From: a plasmid
Assembly: GCF_053078305.1 (NCBI RefSeq)
Contig: NZ_CP166875.1
Length of the DNA stretch: 64,000 nt
Direction: 5' to 3' (one strand)
Shown here: one piece after another, positions 4,965 through 19,683 of the stretch
Position numbering within the stretch: the stretch's first letter is position 1
How the letters are laid out: the number at the start of each line of letters is the position of its first letter
Notes under the pieces: generated by a model
Database searches by the model: none
The model's input: the letters and a program-made list of their open reading frames with translations, nothing else
Told to the model about the DNA's origin: nothing
Program-made: the position numbers and the translations under genes

Positions 4965-7900
4965 ATGAAGTCCAGATATCGTACCTGGCTTGCTGTCCCG
5001 CCTGAGGAGACAGAAGCCGTAAAAAATGCAGTCCCCCCGTTAAATGGCCGCAAAGCTGTCGCATGGGATCCAGAAAAAAAACTCTGGTATGCCCGGGCGG
5101 GTACCGAACTTTCACTGCTGGAGCGCTGGTTACCCCGGCCGCAGGAACTGTCGATGGATGCCGGCGATCCGGTCACCGAATTTGCTCAGGTCCTGGAAAA
5201 CGCCGGACTGGTTATTCAGGGATTGCCACAGATGGATGGCGCCATACACAGAGTCGCCACCCGGGATGACAAAAAAGGGGCCAAAAGTGGCGCATACAAG
5301 GCCTATCTTGATGGGCGCCCCGCCGGCTGGTACCGCGACTACCGGAGCGCCGATGACAGTCCCACAAACTGGGTATTTTCCGGCGGAGAACAACACGATC
5401 CTCTGGCCAGACTGCATCTGCGGGCATTCGCTCAGCAACAGCGCGATGATAACGCACGTAAACTGCAGCAACAGTACAACAAACAGGCCCGGTATGCCCG
5501 CTCCTATATTAACCAGTTACCACAGGCAACAGAGCATGAATACCTGACCCGAAAAGGGATCCTTGCCGCACCGGGCGTCCGTCTGAATAACAAGAATGAA
5601 CTCGTCATCCCTTTCAGTAACAGCCGGGGAGAAATACGTTCATACCAGCGTATTCCTGTCACCGGCGGGAAGGATGCCCGCATTCTGAAAGACTCAGAGA
5701 AAACCGGTAACTGGTTCACCTTCGGAACCCCGGAAAATGGCCGTCCCCTGTTATTTGCGGAAGGTTACGCAACTGCAGCCTCCCTGCACGAAGCCACCGG
5801 CCTTCCGGTTCTGATGACAGTTGATGCCGGCAATATGATTGACGTGGCAGAAAATGCCCGCCAAATCTGGACTGACAGCCCCTTTGTCTTCTGTGCCGAC
5901 AACGACCATCAACGGAAAATTAACAAAGGTGTTTCAAGTGCCCAAAAAGCTGCCGCAAGCACGCATGGCGAAGTCATTATTCCGGCCTTTACGGAGGCGG
6001 AAAAAGCACAGGGACTGACCGATTTCAATGACCTGGACGCCAGCAGGGGACGAGACGCCTTTCAGCGAGCCATGAACGCACAGTTAGAATATATCGGTAT
6101 CCCCACGCCCAACAATGACACTACTGACCGCCGTGAAGCTATCGTGATCGGCAACCTGATATTCACACCGGTAAAAGATGAGAAGCCACAAGTGTACCCT
6201 GAAAACAGACAGAGCACAGCCCCTGAACCGGCAGTGTCGGAACAGAATCATCCTTATGACATCCCTGCAGAAGAGACAGACAATCAGGCATATGAAGATG
6301 ACTATGCAGCATATGCATCCCTGCAGTCGGTAACTGCAGGGACAGCCTCCCCGAATGAACCGCAGGTGAATGCTGTTTCTGCCATTGACAGCAACGCAAA
6401 GAATACCTCTGCCGCCACCACTGACGACCGAAATGTATTAGCACAAGAACCCAATGCTGACGCCACAGTTACGACCACGGCTCACGACACCGGCACAGCA
6501 GAAACAGATTCACCTTCTGAACCTGCAGAGATTCAGCCAGTGCAGCAGGCCAGTCCTGAACCATCGGCTAAAGATAAACCACAGGAGAACGTAGTGTCTG
6601 CTACTGATAATGACGCAGAGAACACCTCTTCCGCCACCACTGCCCTCCGGAGTTACGACACACCGGAAACATCCGTCTCCGACGCAACCGGGACACAGCA
6701 CACCGCCACAACGCAACCTGAAGAACCACAGCAGGTCTCCATGGGCAGCGCTGACGACTGGAGCGCATTTGCGGAAGACCTCAATGCTGATGCTCCGGGG
6801 AATGCCACTGTTCACAGCACCGACAACGCGGAGACAAAGACACTTTCTGAACCTGCCGGGATGCAGCCTGTTCAACAGGCAACCCCTGAACCAACGGAAG
6901 AAAATAAACCTCAGGAAGAGGGCGTTATGTCTGCCACTGATACAGGTGAAGAGAGTGCCGCTGCCGCTATCGATGACGACCTGGACACAGTTGCGGAAGA
7001 CCTCAATGCTGATGTTACTGTGATGACCACAGCTCACCACACCGATACAGCAGAAACAGCCTCACCTTCTGAACCTGCAGAAATTCAGCCCGTACAGCAG
7101 GCAACCCCTGAACCAACGGCAGAAGATAAACCGAAGGAAGAGCGTCCAGTGTCTGCCACTGAGACCAGCACAGCGAATGAAACAGCCCGCCCTGAAACAG
7201 CATCGCTTTTCAGCCGCCTGCGCCGTTTTCTGACCGGTGGAAAATCACGTACCGCCGAACCTCCCGTTATTCAGGAGAACAAGCTTACGGAGGCCGAAAC
7301 TGCGACAGAGGCCGCAGCACCACCGTCACCACCTGAAACCAGCCCGGAAGACACATCGTCAGCAGAACCGGACACGATTATCTTTGCGCCCCGCCGGCCC
7401 AACAGTCCGCAGCGGCACAACCTGGACGAGATTATTAAAAATCTTACATACGATGAGTTACCCGACAATACTGCGCTCTGCCGCGTCGACGGCGAACCGG
7501 CATTCCTGGATAAACTCAACCGTCTGGAAATGGTGGATGGTGCCAGCACTGATGACAAAAAGGTCCTGGCTGCCCTTGCTGTGGCCACCAACTTCTATGG
7601 CGGCGTTATCGAGCTGACCGGCAGTGATGCCTTTAAACAAAAAGCCATGCAGCTGATTGTCGAATATGACATCAAGGTTCGCATGAAACTCCCGGTCCAG
7701 AGGGCTGCGCTGGAAAAACTCCGCCAGGAGAAAGGGATGGCGCATGATGCCATCGTCACCCACAGACCCACGCCGGAACTCAACCGCCTGTCACCGGAAG
7801 AGACAACAATGGCACAACCGGCCCCCCCTGTGTCACCGAAAGCAGAAACAGAGCAAACTGCAGGCAGTACGGCTGAAACACCGCATCCGGAAGCGCCGGT

Positions 7901-13658: not shown

Positions 13659-14057
13659 ATGTCACGATTCCGTGCCATGGCGGCGCGTCTGTGCGCTGCA
13701 TTTATTTATGTTCAGTTATGCCTGGTGGCCTGCCGTGATCGGCTGATACGCCTGTTACTTCTGCTTCCCGTGATACTGCTGCCCCACACAGCGATGGCAA
13801 ACACCCTATTCGATATGATCAAAACCGTTGGCGATGGTGCAAAAGGCTCCAGCAGTTCATTTGTGGCTATCGGTCAGGTTATTGGCCTGGTGCTCTTTAT
13901 CGGCGGCCTGCTTGGCCTCAAACAAATCGGTAAAAAACCCGGTGCCGGGCTGGCCTGCCTGCTGTCAATTCTGGTCGGCCTCTGCCTTGCCGTCGTACCG
14001 GAACTGATGGGTAGCGGACAGAAAACGCTCGGTCTTTCTCCGGTTTCAATCAGTTAA
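13659..14057 (+). CDS. small T4SS membrane protein (TraR-like); start uncertain
   Basis: Two hydrophobic helices (VIGLVLFIGGLLGL, LACLLSILVGLCLAVV); alternative internal start at MANTLFD. Confidence 0.4.
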   Translation: MSRFRAMAARLCAAFIYVQLCLVACRDRLIRLLLLLPVILLPHTAMANTLFDMIKTVGDGAKGSSSSFVAIGQVIGLVLFIGGLLGLKQIGKKPGAGLACLLSILVGLCLAVVPELMGSGQKTLGLSPVSIS

Positions 14058-14113
14058 TCCGCAAAGGCACCGGGAAACCGGTGCCGTCTTCACACAATGA
14101 GGAGGACCAGACC

Positions 14114-14365
14114 ATGTCCTGTGAGCTGCCCCCTTTCACCCTGCTCAGAACAGAGCACGGCAACGTGATTGCCCGCGACAACCGGGATAATCAGGAGTTT
14201 GTGTTTGCAGAATGTTATTCCACCGCCATCGCAGCACTGATTCTGGCTGCCGTCACCCTGTATACAGAGAGAAAAACGTATGAACAAAACACCGCCACTC
14301 ATCGCCCCGGTCCGGGAACGCTGGCTTTTCCCGCTCCCGCAACCGGACACGGTATTCAGCGGTGA
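14114..14365 (+). CDS. small ORF (TraS-position); overlaps next gene in another frame
   Basis: ATG 14114 preceded by GGAGGA; overlaps 14280-15098 by about 85 nt, so one of the two boundaries is probably wrong. Confidence 0.25.
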   Translation: MSCELPPFTLLRTEHGNVIARDNRDNQEFVFAECYSTAIAALILAAVTLYTERKTYEQNTATHRPGPGTLAFPAPATGHGIQR

Positions 14366-15098
14366 ATCCCTGCTGCCACCACCAGTGCTCTCAACACCCG
14401 GACGCTGTCCCTGCTGTCGCAGGACCGTCACTCACCGCTTCATTCTGGAGGATTCATGGCCATTACAGCAGATGGCTGACACCTGCCGGGATACGGTCGT
14501 CCTGCTGGAAAAAAACCTCACCCGGGTGATGCGCCTGAAAAAACATCCGGTACCGGAAAATGCTGACGAAAAAAAGAAACACACCCGAACCCTGCAGGAT
14601 GCGGAGCGGTCCCTGGCACAGGCCCGCCTGTCGGCCAGGCGACTGGCCCTGCGTCATGTGGAAAAGTCACAAATCGTCACAACAGATGCACTCAGCGAAA
14701 ATGAAAGTGAACTGCTGCAGCCGGAAGGCCCGCCCTTTCATCTCTGTGCCTTCTGCCACGCCTGGCACTGCCTGAACGGCTACGCTGCCGCACAGGGGGT
14801 GATGGTCTGGCTCCCTGATTTGCATCCGGCCTCGGTAGTTGCTCTCAATGCACGGGCACTGAAGGAAATTTTCAGCGATGAGCGTAAGCGAGTCAGACAG
14901 GGACGGGCCGTACTGAATGCCCTGGTACAGAACCGCCTGGCCGTTGAGGAGAAATTTCGCACCTGGCGTCCGGCGGATTTTGCTGATGCACTGCGCCGCT
15001 GGCCGCCGGCACAGCGTAAAACGTTGAGGGAGAAAATGGACGGGGTGGCGCTCATTCTGCTGCCGGATTCGTTTCCTGACAAAAAGTACGTCATGTGA
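14280..15098 (+). CDS. hypothetical transfer-operon protein (TraT-position)
   Basis: 272-aa ORF, Cys-containing (CPCCRR, CAFCHAWHC), basic; same strand as the tra operon. Confidence 0.35.
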   Translation: MNKTPPLIAPVRERWLFPLPQPDTVFSGESLLPPPVLSTPGRCPCCRRTVTHRFILEDSWPLQQMADTCRDTVVLLEKNLTRVMRLKKHPVPENADEKKKHTRTLQDAERSLAQARLSARRLALRHVEKSQIVTTDALSENESELLQPEGPPFHLCAFCHAWHCLNGYAAAQGVMVWLPDLHPASVVALNARALKEIFSDERKRVRQGRAVLNALVQNRLAVEEKFRTWRPADFADALRRWPPAQRKTLREKMDGVALILLPDSFPDKKYVM

Positions 15099-15156
15099 CA
15101 CACACCGGTACCGATGACATTCTGCCGGCACACATTCAACTTACAGAGGAACAAAA

Positions 15157-15516
15157 ATGGATACACACTCTGCCGGATATCAGTTCACTGCAGATTCATT
15201 CCGGCGTTTTATTATACGGACGCTGACTGACAATATTCCGCCTGACGGAGATGAAAAAGAAATTGCCCGGTTCATTCTCCGCCACCCGGCATTTAACGGC
15301 GGCTGGCTGCTCTTTCTGGCTGCAGAAATTCATGAAAGATCCCGTACCCATAAAAGCATCACCGTCACAGTGAGCGTCGATAACTATCTCTCATGGATGG
15401 ATATTGCCGTATCCGGTCTCCCGGAATTACCGGATATGCCCTTCTGTGATTTTTTCATTCGCCGCCAGCAGTTTATCTATCCGGGTGTGCCCCCGACAAA
15501 ATCAGGAGAAGAATGA
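15157..15516 (+). CDS. hypothetical protein
   Basis: 119-aa ORF; stop overlaps next ORF start. Confidence 0.3.
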   Translation: MDTHSAGYQFTADSFRRFIIRTLTDNIPPDGDEKEIARFILRHPAFNGGWLLFLAAEIHERSRTHKSITVTVSVDNYLSWMDIAVSGLPELPDMPFCDFFIRRQQFIYPGVPPTKSGEE

Positions 15517-15896
15517 TGAAAATTCACCGCATATCCCCGGAGATGCTTATAACACTCATCCACGCACACCTGGCCGGAAAAACTGACAGTACCGCCAAAG
15601 AAGAGCACCGGCTACTCCGTCGTTTCCTGCGGGATGATGACGGCAGGCTGGCCGGCGTACTGCTGAATATTGCCGGAATACTTCAGTTCAACAGGGAATT
15701 AAGTGCGCGGCATAATTATCCGGCCACACCCCTGACTGAATTTTCATTAAGGAAACGGGGAAAACAACTTCATCTCTGTCTCTGCAGTCTCCGTTTCTTT
15801 TATATTCCTCCGGTATTTATACAAAACAAAAGAAGAAAATCTATTGTTGTACATCTTAATAAGATCACTTATAAACAAACCCATTCAATACGCTGA
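15513..15896 (+). CDS. hypothetical protein
   Basis: 127-aa ORF coupled to the previous one; C-terminal part runs into an AT-rich segment. Confidence 0.3.
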   Translation: MMKIHRISPEMLITLIHAHLAGKTDSTAKEEHRLLRRFLRDDDGRLAGVLLNIAGILQFNRELSARHNYPATPLTEFSLRKRGKQLHLCLCSLRFFYIPPVFIQNKRRKSIVVHLNKITYKQTHSIR

Positions 15897-16414
15897 CGAA
15901 GTGATTCATACTGATTATACTCATCTTTGCCTATATGTTTTTTAAGCGTATTAACAATATCATATTGAGGATGTCCTGAATTGTCAGTATACAGTGTTGT
16001 TGCAGGAAGGACTGCATAATCTGATATTTCACAACCTGTATACAGTTCTTTGTCAGTTCGGCAGGAATGGCAAAGAGAAAGACATGTATACAGGTCTGTG
16101 TTTTCTGCCTCCTCAGGAGATAACCACGACACATATTGCAAATCATCTGTATCAGGATAACAATTTTCTTCCTGAACCTGAACTCTGAAAATATAGAAAA
16201 ATAATTCATCTTTTGAAAGGCATGCTATTTTATTCCCCCAATGCACCGCATTATCAAGTTGATCCGATAAATAAATCCATCCTGGTGTCGTCTCTAACGA
16301 CCAGCATATAACAGAAGGAGCATCAGTTCTTATTTTCCCATCTTTTATTATTTGCAGACCTCTGCTCATTGTTGTCGCATGAAAAAGATTTAATATTTTA
16401 TTTTCAGCCTTCAC
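15869..16414 (-). CDS. hypothetical protein encoded antisense to the tra operon, AT-rich (181 aa)
   Basis: Long minus-strand ORF in a markedly AT-rich block between GC-rich tra genes; N-terminal motif LFHATT...GLQIIKDGKI. Confidence 0.4.
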   Translation of the reverse strand: MKAENKILNLFHATTMSRGLQIIKDGKIRTDAPSVICWSLETTPGWIYLSDQLDNAVHWGNKIACLSKDELFFYIFRVQVQEENCYPDTDDLQYVSWLSPEEAENTDLYTCLSLCHSCRTDKELYTGCEISDYAVLPATTLYTDNSGHPQYDIVNTLKKHIGKDEYNQYESLRQRIEWVCL

Positions 16415-16483
16415 TCTATTTCCTCATTTCCCAAGAAACATATTAAAAACGGAAAACATTACACATAACCTGGAGGACAAATC

Positions 16484-16576
16484 ATGACTTTAAATTTCCC
16501 TGCCGGGGAAACTACACTATTCTCAGCAAAAAACATCCTGACAGCAATACTCACTCTGCACAACTTACACGCATAG
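16484..16576 (+). CDS. small ORF (30 aa) with strong ribosome-binding site
   Basis: GGAGG 7 nt before ATG 16484; encodes MTLNFPAGETTLFSAKNILTAILTLHNLHA; lies just upstream of traU. Confidence 0.25.
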   Translation: MTLNFPAGETTLFSAKNILTAILTLHNLHA

Positions 16577-16638
16577 CGTTCCCATTTGAATACAGTTGCA
16601 GCCCGCGATTTATTTTGTCTTCCGGAGCCACCTCTGCC

Positions 16639-19600
16639 ATGAATATCAACCGCATTATTTTTGCCATTGAAGACTGTATCAGTACCCTGTCACGGTATTC
16701 CGTTTCCGCATTCTTCCCCGATTACTGTGATCTGCACACCGTCATCGGTCTGGACCAGCAGGACCGCGAACGCCGCCCCTGGCTGAAAGCCCCCTACATT
16801 GCCACCACAAAACAGGGGTATTACCTTTCCGTCTTTGAAATCAGCGGTGCCCTGAAAGAAATGGATGAAAACCCGGACCTGACAGCCCCCGGCACACTGG
16901 AATCACTGATTACAGCGCTGGCAGAGCGAATGAACACTGCCTATAAAAACACCGGTCACAAAATCAGTTTTGTTTTCGAACGCGATCCGGAGCGTGGAAG
17001 GGATGAAATCGAAGCCATGCTCTTACCCCAGCGAAAATCCATCGCACGCACGGGGATCCTGCTTCAGGACGTTCTGGATGAAAAAGTCACCACGCTCACC
17101 CCCTGGCTTGTCCGGGAACGCTGCTGGCTGACCGTCTGGAGCTCTGAAGAACTGCTGAGCCGGACCGATCGCAAGGACCACCAGACCCGTATCAGGAAAC
17201 TCGCTGAACACGCTCCGCCAGCCCGATTTGCGCAGGATCCATGGCGCTGGACACTTTCCGCACTCAAAATACGGCATGACGCCTTTCTGGACACGCTGGA
17301 GCAGGCCCTGACACATGATTCTGATGGTCTGCTGGTTCGCCTGATGGATATTCATGAAGTGGGACGGGAAATCCGCCGTCAACTGGAGCGCAACAGCACA
17401 CCTGCAGTATGGCAGCCTCATCTGCCTGAAGATGCCCGTCCTGCCGGCTGGCGACAGGGCGAGGATACCTCTGTATTCCACGCACCGTCGCTGAATCTGC
17501 AGTTATTCACCACACAGCCTGAAACACACGGCAGCCTGATAAAGGCCGGTGACCTCTGGCACGGTATGGTCGCCATTACCCTGCCACCCCAGAATCTGCG
17601 GACATTCAACCAGCTGGTCAGGGATGTGCCCCGCGCAATCCCCTGGCGTATCCGGATGGATCTGATGCCCGGCGGCATGAAGGCGCTTGGGGTCAAGAAA
17701 ACCCTGCTGACCTACAGCAGCTTTATTTCCCCTCTCCGGCCCATGTATGACTCGGTGATGATGCTGAATGACATCAACAAACATGATCCGGTCTGTATCA
17801 TGACCATTGTTGCCACCACATGGGGAAACAGCCGGGAAGTCTGTACCCGCAACCAGGCTCTCCTGAAATCTGCGCTGGAAGGCTGGGGAGTATGCGGCAC
17901 CACCACCACCTTCGGTGATCCGAGACGTGCCTGGGTGAACACGGTTCTGGCGGCCTCCCACGGTTCCGGTCCAGTCCCCCTTTACCCGCCCCTTTCACAC
18001 GCCCTTTCCCTGTTTCCCCTGAACAGGGCCGGCTCTGTCTGGCGGGGACAGGGAAATCTGATGATGCACACCGAAGACGGCTCTGCATGGGAGGTCGCGC
18101 TGGCATCGTCACAACAGAACAAGCACACGGAACTGACGCCCGGCGCACCCGGTCTGGGCAAATCGGTACTCATCAACGCACTGTCGGAGATCCAGATAGC
18201 CTCAGCCCAGAAGAACCTGCCTTTCATTGCCTATATCGACAAGGGATTCAGTGCACAGGGACTGGTACAGCTTATCCGTGACAGCCTGCCGGAGCAGAGA
18301 AAGGACGAAGCCGTGGGGATCATTCTGAGCAATGATCCGGAACACACCCGTAACCTGTTTGATGTGATGTACGGTGCTAAAAAACCCGCCACCCCGGAAA
18401 AGAACTTCATGGTATCTGTACTCTGCGCACTGTGCGTGGATACCGGCACCGGTCAGCCCTGTAATCCCGGTGACACCCGGCAAATCATAAGCAACCTGGT
18501 GGATCTGGCCTTCAGGGAGTATGGCGAAAACAACCCCAGACTGTACCGTGCAGGAACAGAGCCCCTTGTGGATCTCGCCCTGGAAGAGAGTGGCATCGCA
18601 GAACAACATGACGCTGGATGGTGGAATGCTGCCACCTGGTTTGAAATCAGGGACATGCTGCATATGGCTGGCAATATCCCCGCAGCCCAGCGGGCACACT
18701 ACCAGGCCATGCCCCTGCTGGCTGAAATGTCCGCCCTGCTGGGACAGCCATCCATCCGGGATGTGTTCGGCACAGTTCAGCGCGATAACTCAGCAGAATT
18801 GTTACTGGACTACATCCGCCGTGCCCTCGATCAGGGACACAGTGACTACCCGATGATGTCCGGCTGTACCCAGTTTATGCTCAGCCCCGACACCCGCGTC
18901 GTGGCCGTTGATCTGAACAATGTGGCCGGTGACAAGACACCTGCCGGGCGTCTGCGCACCGGCATCATGTACCTGCTGGCAGGACAAATCGCCGGAGGGG
19001 ATTTTGTCCTGCCGCAGTATCAGGAGGAAATACGGAAAAATCTCGACCCACGCTACCATGAGGTGATTTTCCGCCGCATTGAACAGCTTGATCAGGAGGT
19101 CAAGACCAAAGTCTATGACGAACTGCACAATGCAAAAGGGATCAATTTCATCTGGGAAGCCCTGGACACCCAGGAGCTGGAGCAGCGTAAGTTCGGGATA
19201 CGCACAGTGCTGAGCACCCAGCTATTGCAGGACTATCCACCGGCAGTTCTCAAATCCGCCAACACCCTCTGGTTGCTGCGTTACCGCCCTGACGAAATTC
19301 CGTTTCTGCGGGATAATTTTGGTGTCCCTGAAGTCACCCTGCGGCGCTTCCTGAAAATGCCGGAAGGGGCTGCACCGGATGGCAGCGGTGTCCCGGTACT
19401 GGCGGTGTTCCGTGTAAAAAACGGTACGCTGGCCCGGATCCTGAAATTCACTCTCGGTCCACTGGAGCTGTGGGCACTGAATTCCTCACCCAAAGACAGC
19501 GCCCTGAGACGTGCGCTGACGCAGGAGCTCGGGTCACTGCGGGCACGCCAGATCCTGGCAGAAAACTTTCCCCGTGGTTCAGCCACCTCACTGATAGAAC

Positions 19601-19683
19601 ACCGCGCCCGTACACATGACAGTGAAAACGTCATCCATGATCTGGCTGCGGAACTCATCCGTAAGCAGGGATATCACCTCTGA
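16639..19683 (+). CDS. traU: T4SS ATPase, DotO/IcmB (VirB4-like) family (TraU-like)
   Basis: Walker A PGAPGLGKS; 1014 aa from ATG 16639; stop overlaps next start. Confidence 0.75.
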   Translation: MNINRIIFAIEDCISTLSRYSVSAFFPDYCDLHTVIGLDQQDRERRPWLKAPYIATTKQGYYLSVFEISGALKEMDENPDLTAPGTLESLITALAERMNTAYKNTGHKISFVFERDPERGRDEIEAMLLPQRKSIARTGILLQDVLDEKVTTLTPWLVRERCWLTVWSSEELLSRTDRKDHQTRIRKLAEHAPPARFAQDPWRWTLSALKIRHDAFLDTLEQALTHDSDGLLVRLMDIHEVGREIRRQLERNSTPAVWQPHLPEDARPAGWRQGEDTSVFHAPSLNLQLFTTQPETHGSLIKAGDLWHGMVAITLPPQNLRTFNQLVRDVPRAIPWRIRMDLMPGGMKALGVKKTLLTYSSFISPLRPMYDSVMMLNDINKHDPVCIMTIVATTWGNSREVCTRNQALLKSALEGWGVCGTTTTFGDPRRAWVNTVLAASHGSGPVPLYPPLSHALSLFPLNRAGSVWRGQGNLMMHTEDGSAWEVALASSQQNKHTELTPGAPGLGKSVLINALSEIQIASAQKNLPFIAYIDKGFSAQGLVQLIRDSLPEQRKDEAVGIILSNDPEHTRNLFDVMYGAKKPATPEKNFMVSVLCALCVDTGTGQPCNPGDTRQIISNLVDLAFREYGENNPRLYRAGTEPLVDLALEESGIAEQHDAGWWNAATWFEIRDMLHMAGNIPAAQRAHYQAMPLLAEMSALLGQPSIRDVFGTVQRDNSAELLLDYIRRALDQGHSDYPMMSGCTQFMLSPDTRVVAVDLNNVAGDKTPAGRLRTGIMYLLAGQIAGGDFVLPQYQEEIRKNLDPRYHEVIFRRIEQLDQEVKTKVYDELHNAKGINFIWEALDTQELEQRKFGIRTVLSTQLLQDYPPAVLKSANTLWLLRYRPDEIPFLRDNFGVPEVTLRRFLKMPEGAAPDGSGVPVLAVFRVKNGTLARILKFTLGPLELWALNSSPKDSALRRALTQELGSLRARQILAENFPRGSATSLIEHRARTHDSENVIHDLAAELIRKQGYHL

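Follow-up and report, generated by a model that had tools for sequence, protein, structure and literature searches.

A predicted ADP-ribosyltransferase gene, antisense within the transfer operon of I-complex plasmids, and its two conserved neighbors

The stretch of plasmid DNA analyzed here (the window: 64,000 nucleotides, or nt, of contig NZ_CP166875.1, NCBI RefSeq assembly GCF_053078305.1) holds the traE–traY transfer region of an I-complex plasmid. Between traT and traU, two small genes, o119 and o127, are followed by a convergent minus-strand gene for a 181-amino-acid (aa) protein, predicted to be an ADP-ribosyltransferase (ART). A preliminary description of this DNA had listed two coupled + strand open reading frames (ORFs) of 119 and 127 aa, the 181-aa minus-strand ORF and a 30-aa ORF, all of which are present, and had taken the region for an insertion of acquired cargo in the transfer operon. 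The features are as follows.

14280–15098, + strand: traT, whose product identical plasmids label conjugal transfer protein TraT; it borders the module upstream in the window lineage
15157–15516, + strand: o119, encoding a 119-aa protein; conserved partner gene of the ART gene
15513–15896, + strand: o127, encoding a 127-aa protein; translationally coupled to o119, its ATG overlapping the o119 stop codon (ATGA)
15869–16414, − strand: ART gene, encoding the 181-aa predicted ADP-ribosyltransferase; GTG start, with GAGGA 8 nt upstream
15869–15896: convergent 3′ overlap of o127 and the ART gene, 28 nt, with no terminator-like site between the two
15898–16621: 724-bp segment found only in ART-carrying plasmids, placed from blastn break points and reading of the sequence
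16484–16576, + strand: 30-aa ORF, with GGAGG 7 nt upstream; probably not a gene
16639–19683, + strand: traU, encoding a DotO/IcmB-type ATPase; downstream flank, with the start given by the Prokaryotic Genome Annotation Pipeline (PGAP)

Bases 14000–17500 of the window match E. coli plasmid NC_025145 at 100% identity and many plasmids typed as IncK2/Z, MOBP and MPF_I at 99.9–100%. The region is polymorphic, the whole stretch being carried by only 74 of the 450 matching I-complex plasmids. Window traT is 61% identical to IncI1 TraT, and window traU is 54% identical to an 880-aa ORF in E. coli plasmid CP055049 (locus L005 below). A search of 14000–17500 with Rfam found no RNA family. The AT-rich block noted earlier around the minus-strand ORF is evident both in the GC profile, which falls to 0.34–0.39 across 15700–16600 against 0.54–0.62 in the flanks (300-nt windows), and gene by gene: the ART gene has a GC content of 0.361 and a GC content at third codon positions (GC3) of 0.253, compared with 0.585 and 0.637 for traT and 0.566 and 0.627 for traU. 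The values for o119 (GC 0.49) and o127 (0.45) lie between those of the ART gene and the backbone.

Searched by itself, the 181-aa protein has no match in Pfam (even at E 10), NCBIfam, PADLOC or PDB sequences, and the sole profile that it matches, phrog_13493 (E 2.8e-4), is of unknown function. A word-indexed search retrieved 13 relatives, of which those of full length go down to 41% identity, and 44 residues are invariant across 8 relatives at 41–74% identity. When a profile made from 8 of the 13 was searched against 1.84 billion proteins, it retrieved 172 representative clusters, nearly all of them stand-alone proteins of 165–195 aa. The consensus of 101 members reads M.LYHGT...RG..IL.DG.IK ... 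TT.GYVYLT.....A.YYGN ... YIF...I....L.PD.DE ... SL....S.R, and among these members the most conserved residues are H12 (98 of 101), T14 (99), I22 (101), Y48 (100), D88 (101), D90 (96), E91 (88) and W178 (94).

The window protein retains the top-conserved residues, apart from two substitutions in and beside them. Its N terminus, LFHATT..RG..I..G, corresponds to the H-x-T NAD-binding motif of the family on strand 1, with Ala in place of the Gly that follows the His (H-A-T, not H-G-T), as in 16 other members, and E91 of the family is Asp in the window protein and Asn in some plasmid relatives. The residues of note are H12, T14, Y48, D88, D90, D91 and R119, together with an aromatic pair at 58/59; the acidic motif D88-x-D90-D91, in which D88 and D90 are 95–100% conserved, is the candidate catalytic acid region. 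The plasmid clade has additional conserved Cys and His residues, at C85 and at C115-H116-S117-C118. Within the ART gene, 16034–16095 of the window holds an imperfect 21-nt inverted repeat, also a direct repeat, that is centered on the palindrome TGTATACA and coincides with two LYT codon triplets on either side of the CHSCRT motif; this repeat may be a by-product of palindromic codons.

When family members were scanned singly, three matched the Pfam PARP profile at E ≤1e-3 (best 8.7e-7) and seven at E ≤0.1, with one further match to DUF3990 and two weak ones to ART-PolyVal. An AlphaFold2 model built on the 101-member alignment has a predicted local distance difference test score (pLDDT) of 95.5 and a predicted template modeling score of 0.90. 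In a Foldseek search of PDB with this model, all 47 of the 47 matches up to E 0.8 belong to the ART superfamily, with TM-scores of just 0.37–0.44; they include cholera and pertussis toxins, TreTu, CARDS, Arr, Tpt1, NatT, DarT and PARPs, and the closest structures are TreX, LT and DarT1. A profile of the 101 members found among PDB sequences just a non-significant match to the HGT motif of Tpt1 (E 0.28). On the strength of the model, we conclude that the product of the antisense gene is small, stands alone and has a predicted ART fold, and the early impression of an ART-like N terminus is borne out by the members' Pfam matches, the model and the H-x-T motif. Protein-level constraint (a ratio of nonsynonymous to synonymous polymorphism, pN/pS, of 0.27–0.52, the invariant residues, the 172 clusters and the confident model) marks it as a real gene. 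We further favor the prediction, drawn from the modeled fold and its motifs, that it has NAD+-dependent mono-ADP-ribosyltransferase activity.

The protein belongs to an uncharacterized ART family in the H-Y-[E/D/Q] part of the superfamily (clade naming follows PMC9503650), with no solved structure or curated family close to it. With PARP (PF00644), ART-PolyVal (PF18760) and DUF3990 (PF13151) it shares the predicted fold, the His of strand 1 (H-x-T), the Tyr of strand 2, aromatic residues about 10 residues further on and a later acidic motif; it departs from them in its H-A-T and in an acidic D-x-D-D, which opens a helix directly behind strand 3. ART-PolyVal domains are likewise borne on mobile elements (PMC5512222, PMC9503650), but the window protein, at 181 aa, stands alone, outside any polyvalent protein. 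DarT, the single-stranded DNA thymidine ADP-ribosyltransferase (DUF4433) of DarTG, is similar in size. The DarT N terminus, hYH.T....L..I...G.l, also resembles that of the window protein. Unlike in DarTG, there is no DUF4433 match and no adjacent macrodomain protein DarG, and o119 and o127 are convergent with the ART gene and lack a macro fold. Arr and Tpt1/KptA are, similarly, minimal stand-alone ARTs, and the H19/Y49/D84 spacing of Arr resembles the H..Y..D spacing of the window protein. However, neither gives a significant sequence match, the Arg/His tetrad context of Tpt1 is absent from the window protein, and the genomic setting bears no sign of antibiotic resistance or RNA repair.

We judge from their conservation that o119 and o127 are also real genes: homologues are 33–66% identical across lineages, with pN/pS of 0.33–0.57. 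Neither has a Pfam match. The o119 family is small and restricted to Enterobacterales plasmids, and o127 homologues are found at loci L002, L004, L005, L008, L012, L017 and L018 (described below). A structure model of o119 shows no macrodomain, NADAR, ARH or known antitoxin fold, and PADLOC, run on the ART, o119, o127 and traT, gave nothing beyond a chance-level DndH match of o119 (E 0.027). Paralogy of o119 and o127 was considered and rejected (BLASTP E 18, negligible hidden Markov model [HMM] score), as was the identity of o119 with PilM, suggested by its position in a Rahnella plasmid, since no similarity was found. The 30-aa ORF, which had been put forward as a gene with a strong GGAGG site, has that site but is not conserved; none of L005, L008, L012 and L018 has an equivalent of it, and just 56 bp (L008) and 86 bp (L012) separate the ART gene from traU in two of them, too little to hold it. 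For this reason it is probably not a gene.

Five or more diverged I-type transfer regions of enterobacteria share the order o119, o127, backwards ART. In Salmonella-associated loci L008–L010 (ART 55% identical) and in metagenomic loci L011/L012 (ART 41%), traT is followed by two small genes, of about 120 and about 125 aa, and then by the backwards ART gene and traU, just as in the window. In an Enterobacter ludwigii plasmid (L018; ART 43%), the trio stands between traR and a traT-like gene that precedes traU, and in L005 (ART 72%) the order is traR, o119, o127, backwards ART, a phospholipase D-family gene, a traT-like gene and traU. Beyond these, a Rahnella MPF_I plasmid (L006, also L015) carries the ART gene in its pil operon, in antisense orientation and converging on the gene for a 137-aa o119 homologue, which is detected pairwise at E 1e-7 to 3e-6 and at 1.8e-35 with an o119 HMM that includes it. 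An HMM scan of the fetched loci found the ART gene flanked by both o119 and o127 in 5 of 5 enterobacterial tra-region lineages and by o119 only in Rahnella. The association is one-way, as L002, L004 and L017 have o119 and o127 and no ART gene. Among PLSDB plasmids, 76 have a full-length ART gene, 229 have o127 and 174 have o119; the ART gene is present in 77 of 5426 complete E. coli genomes, where it is always plasmid-borne, full length and at least 99% identical.

Several details of these loci deserve mention in their own right. In L006 (Rahnella sikkimica NZ_CP019065, 4989–5928), the o119 homologue occupies the usual pilM slot, between a pilL-like gene with a TcpQ domain and pilN, and no PilM-like gene is annotated in this interval. 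In L005 (NZ_CP055049, a plasmid typed as mobilizable only), RefSeq has a + strand ORF at 5881–6315 that overlies the minus-strand o119 homologue at 5878–6228, and the o127 homologue at 5495–5881 is omitted; the + strand call by PGAP is likely a mis-annotation. Further from the trio, positions 1–27334 of the window are collinear with NZ_CP027600 at 99.2% identity, up to about 27.3 kb, while 27335–64000 matches it in gapped pieces at 80–97% identity and the accessory and leading regions differ.

Other I-complex plasmids have lost the ART gene, or all three genes, and have done so several times. Loci L002 and L017 keep o119 and o127 and have lost the ART gene, L017 (from a Plautia stali symbiont and close to L018) having the L018 arrangement minus ART, and among close IncK2/Z relatives the ART gene may be present or absent. 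In IncB/O plasmids (L003) the traT–traU junction is compact, and because a fused o119 remnant survives there (codons 1–43 plus a later piece; seen in about 218 plasmids), the junction is a deletion product. Classical IncI1 plasmids (L013) have a gap of 89 bp between traT and traU and none of the three genes. Thus, whether traT and traU are normally adjacent, which the preliminary description had left to be compared, has a divided answer: they are in classical IncI1, and they are not in L008 and L012, where the trio lies between them. ART-less IncK2/Z and IncB/O plasmids have in common a 157-bp leader of traU (L002 3397–3553, L003 2760–2890), which is unrelated to the 724-bp segment and is replaced in ART-carrying plasmids. 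This leader contains a GC-rich hairpin (TGCCACATCCCCTGCTGTGGCA) between a T-run and an A-run, which may serve in regulation or as a terminator for both directions.

In the blaCMY-2 type of IncK2 (L004), an ISEcp1-blaCMY-2-blc-sugE unit lies directly upstream of o119, which it truncates, and the ART gene is absent. In pTMSA992 (NZ_KR905387), L004 1–3269 corresponds to about 15100–15250 of the window, and the unit removes the first 31 codons of o119 and leaves o127 intact. The unit has been described as lying "between traT and traU" in IncK2 (PMC5350095). It occupies the same interval as the trio; in contrast to the trio, which lacks mobile-element hallmarks and is deeply shared, it has the bounds and inverted repeats of a transposition unit and is found in one recent lineage.

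How old is the trio? Measured from the window, nonsynonymous divergence (dN) of L008 is 0.39 for the ART gene, compared with 0.36 for traT, 0.31 for traO, 0.33 for traV and 0.20 for traQ, and that of L012 is 0.57 for the ART gene, compared with 0.50, 0.48, 0.50 and 0.37, respectively. As divergence of the ART gene is close to that of the backbone in both, the gene diverged together with the operon. In L005, by contrast, dN of the trio is 0.16–0.29 versus about 0.6 for backbone traQ and traO, so the three genes were exchanged there as one unit. Within IncK2/Z, synonymous divergence (dS) is 0.009 for the ART gene and 0.16 for traT (0.12–0.19 for traT and o119), and a tract of low divergence covers about 15300–16800; the tract and the near-invariant ART gene point to spread by homologous recombination among IncK2/Z relatives. 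We found no direct or inverted repeats at 15898 and 16621, and no insertion sequence (IS) elements or integrase bounding the segment.

The ART gene is AT-rich in every lineage (GC 0.36–0.45 versus 0.58–0.64 for the locus; GC3 0.25–0.37), so that its foreign look is persistent and not the mark of a recent arrival. The intermediate GC of o119 and o127 (0.42–0.49) also holds across lineages, and the ART gene shows no drift toward the composition of the backbone, although its protein has diverged much as the backbone has. The preliminary description had held that the same genes with matching composition in related regions would speak against an insertion; genes, order and orientation do agree, and the low GC is unlike the backbone everywhere. 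Candidate explanations for a stable low GC are selection for H-NS silencing or for low expression, or exchange within a gene pool of lower GC.

Outside enterobacterial plasmids, the family is found mainly on low-GC mobile elements, and distant members lie in elements of low-GC Firmicutes (GC 0.24–0.36). Their contexts include a phage-like linear plasmid of Bacillus licheniformis, a position 3′ of a NERD-domain gene, a prophage-like region beside holin and endolysin genes, an integrative and conjugative element (ICE)-like region, and an integrase/relaxase element. In yet another, on a chromosome of 33% GC, the ART gene is directly 3′ of a TIR-domain gene and near AbiJ and Lit genes. In this last case (L014, CP075175.1, 4938–6513), a 170-aa distant ART lies 31 bp 3′ of the TIR-domain (CAP12-PCTIR_TIR) gene, in a region that also carries the AbiJ and Lit (Peptidase_U49) genes; the TIR and ART genes could form an unrecognized two-gene defense system. 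Several family members match phrog_13493. Searched by tblastn, 50,697 phage genomes gave no match to the window ART or the Bacillus homologue; a scan of GTDB representative genomes with the plasmid-clade alignment turned up no relative, and PADLOC, run on 10 other members, gave just one weak match (to an "unknown effector," E 0.005, for the Rahnella protein).

What might the antisense placement of the ART gene do? In six lineages (window, L005, L006, L008, L012 and L018), o127, or o119 in Rahnella, and the ART gene converge with 3′ overlaps of 6–28 nt. Given this overlap, the lack of a terminator-like site and the position of traU directly beyond, tra transcription would cross the entire ART gene antisense, unless traU has its own promoter. 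Expression of the ART gene and of traU–traY would then interfere, through transcriptional collision and RNA duplexes, and the ART would be produced mainly while the transfer genes are silent. The o119 and o127 proteins, made from the tra transcript, would be likely partners of the ART, as inhibitors or adaptors.

Our preferred reading, which we consider fairly probable, is that the trio is an old and accessory three-gene module of MPF_I (Dot/Icm-like) transfer regions, encoding an active mono-ART that has a role in conflict and is opposed by tra read-through. A conflict function is favored because the family is mostly solitary on plasmids and prophage- or ICE-like elements and sometimes lies beside defense genes. 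As to what the ART would do for the plasmid, we tentatively favor a defense or exclusion effector acting on a macromolecule of the invader or the host; counter-defense or modification of the host has a somewhat smaller chance, and service as an addiction toxin or in regulation of the type IV secretion system (T4SS) seems in either case unlikely. A more specific version, which we also think unlikely, makes the trio a conjugation-coupled switch in which the ART is made in the non-transferring state and attacks incoming DNA, phage or rival plasmids until the tra operon turns it off. The ART might then target nucleic acid, as DarT does; antisense read-through would silence it, o119 and o127 would be a new family of ART inhibitors, and the shut-off would spare the single-stranded transfer DNA of the plasmid itself, or its secretion machine, from modification.

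Several observations weigh against the preferred reading. The 181-aa protein itself does not match a curated ART profile, and with its H-A-T motif and the change of E91 to Asp or Asn, activity could be altered or lost. A promoter scan for the ART gene found just a weak site inside traU, and alignment of upstream regions across lineages was uninformative. o119 and o127 are under purifying selection in about 150 plasmids without the ART gene (229 plasmids with o127 versus 76 with ART), and genes kept in this way need a role that is independent of the ART; their link to it is perhaps only physical. The ART gene spreads laterally by recombination within IncK2/Z, as cargo would. Finally, distant family members are solitary, with no o119-like neighbor.

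Among the alternatives, a counter-defense or host-takeover enzyme that modifies an immune or core protein of the host, analogous to phage T4 Alt and Mod, polyvalent-protein ARTs and AcrIF11, retains a modest minority chance. It would account for the members that match ART-PolyVal and phrog_13493 and for the spread of a mostly solitary family over prophage-like, ICE-like and plasmid contexts. However, the gene is outside the leading region and antisense to the transfer operon, such that early expression in a recipient is not obvious; the relatives beside TIR, AbiJ, Lit and NERD genes fit defense as well; and the 50,697 phage genomes gave no tblastn match.

It is rather unlikely that the trio is a toxin-antitoxin or addiction system, with a growth-arresting ART (like DarT or ParT), o119 and o127 as antitoxins and antisense tra RNA as an additional, RNA-level control. 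In enterobacterial MPF_I regions, Rahnella included, the ART gene always comes with o119, whereas o119 and o127 also occur alone, which is the pattern of orphan antitoxins; the closest structures (TreX, LT and DarT1) are toxins; and the trio moves as a unit. Yet a generic type II system is co-transcribed, with mutual co-occurrence of its genes, and here the genes are convergent and co-occurrence runs in one direction. Moreover, o119 lacks the folds expected of an antitoxin, the wider family is solitary, there are no matches to PADLOC or toxin-antitoxin models, and o119 and o127 are maintained in the many ART-less plasmids.

The idea with which the preliminary description began, recent foreign cargo from a low-GC donor inserted into a compact traT–traU junction, we now regard as improbable, having found it largely refuted by synteny and co-divergence. 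Part of it stands: traT and traU are adjacent in IncI1, the ART gene comes and goes among close IncK2/Z relatives, and its near-invariant allele sits in a recombination tract there. Its GC (0.36 versus 0.58), the low GC of the Firmicutes elements that carry distant relatives, and the fact that the interval also took ISEcp1-blaCMY-2 in IncK2 (PMC5350095) fit cargo as well. On the other side, L005, L008, L012 and L018 have these three genes in unchanged order and orientation, including where tra proteins are just 40–60% identical and the ART gene has diverged as much as the backbone. Low GC is retained in all five syntenic lineages, no IS, integrase or flanking repeats bound the trio, and the o119 remnant of IncB/O marks the compact junction as derived by deletion.

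A non-catalytic accessory protein of a type IVB secretion system (T4BSS), in which the ART fold would bind NAD as an IcmQ-like module and o119 and o127 would be IcmR-like chaperones, is very unlikely. The Dot/Icm-like transfer system and the two small upstream genes that accompany the ART would suit it, but among the structure matches genuine ARTs stand far above IcmQ, which ranks only 57th. The ART gene runs antisense to the operon and converges on its two small neighbors, where an icmR-like chaperone gene would be co-oriented. Presence is also far from universal: many transfer-proficient I-complex plasmids, IncI1 among them, have no ART, and the family has members in settings without a T4BSS. 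That the ORF is spurious or decaying, with the AT-rich block mattering as DNA (an H-NS site or a traU promoter), is hardly credible, for although many plasmids do without the ART gene and the block is AT-rich, the gene is conserved across lineages with the constraint and the confident model given above.

No account of these genes came up in the literature searched, in which the interval is named only as the site of blaCMY-2 integration (PMC5350095), and searches for ARTs on conjugative plasmids or in leading regions returned nothing relevant. Thus, as far as we have searched, both the ART family, which lies within a known superfamily, and the three-gene module, antisense in a conjugation operon, are new and unreported.

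ARTs are common on mobile elements, and I-complex plasmids (IncI, K, B/O and Z) are major carriers of extended-spectrum β-lactamase and AmpC resistance genes whose transfer operons are usually regarded as fully cataloged. The window protein belongs to a mobile-element ART family that no Pfam or NCBIfam model covers in its case, and its gene provides a concrete case of low GC as a stable property of a gene and not a mark of recent transfer. That three uncharacterized genes are kept across deep plasmid divergence points to an unrecognized accessory function linked to conjugation, which may lie in defense, counter-defense or the control of transfer.

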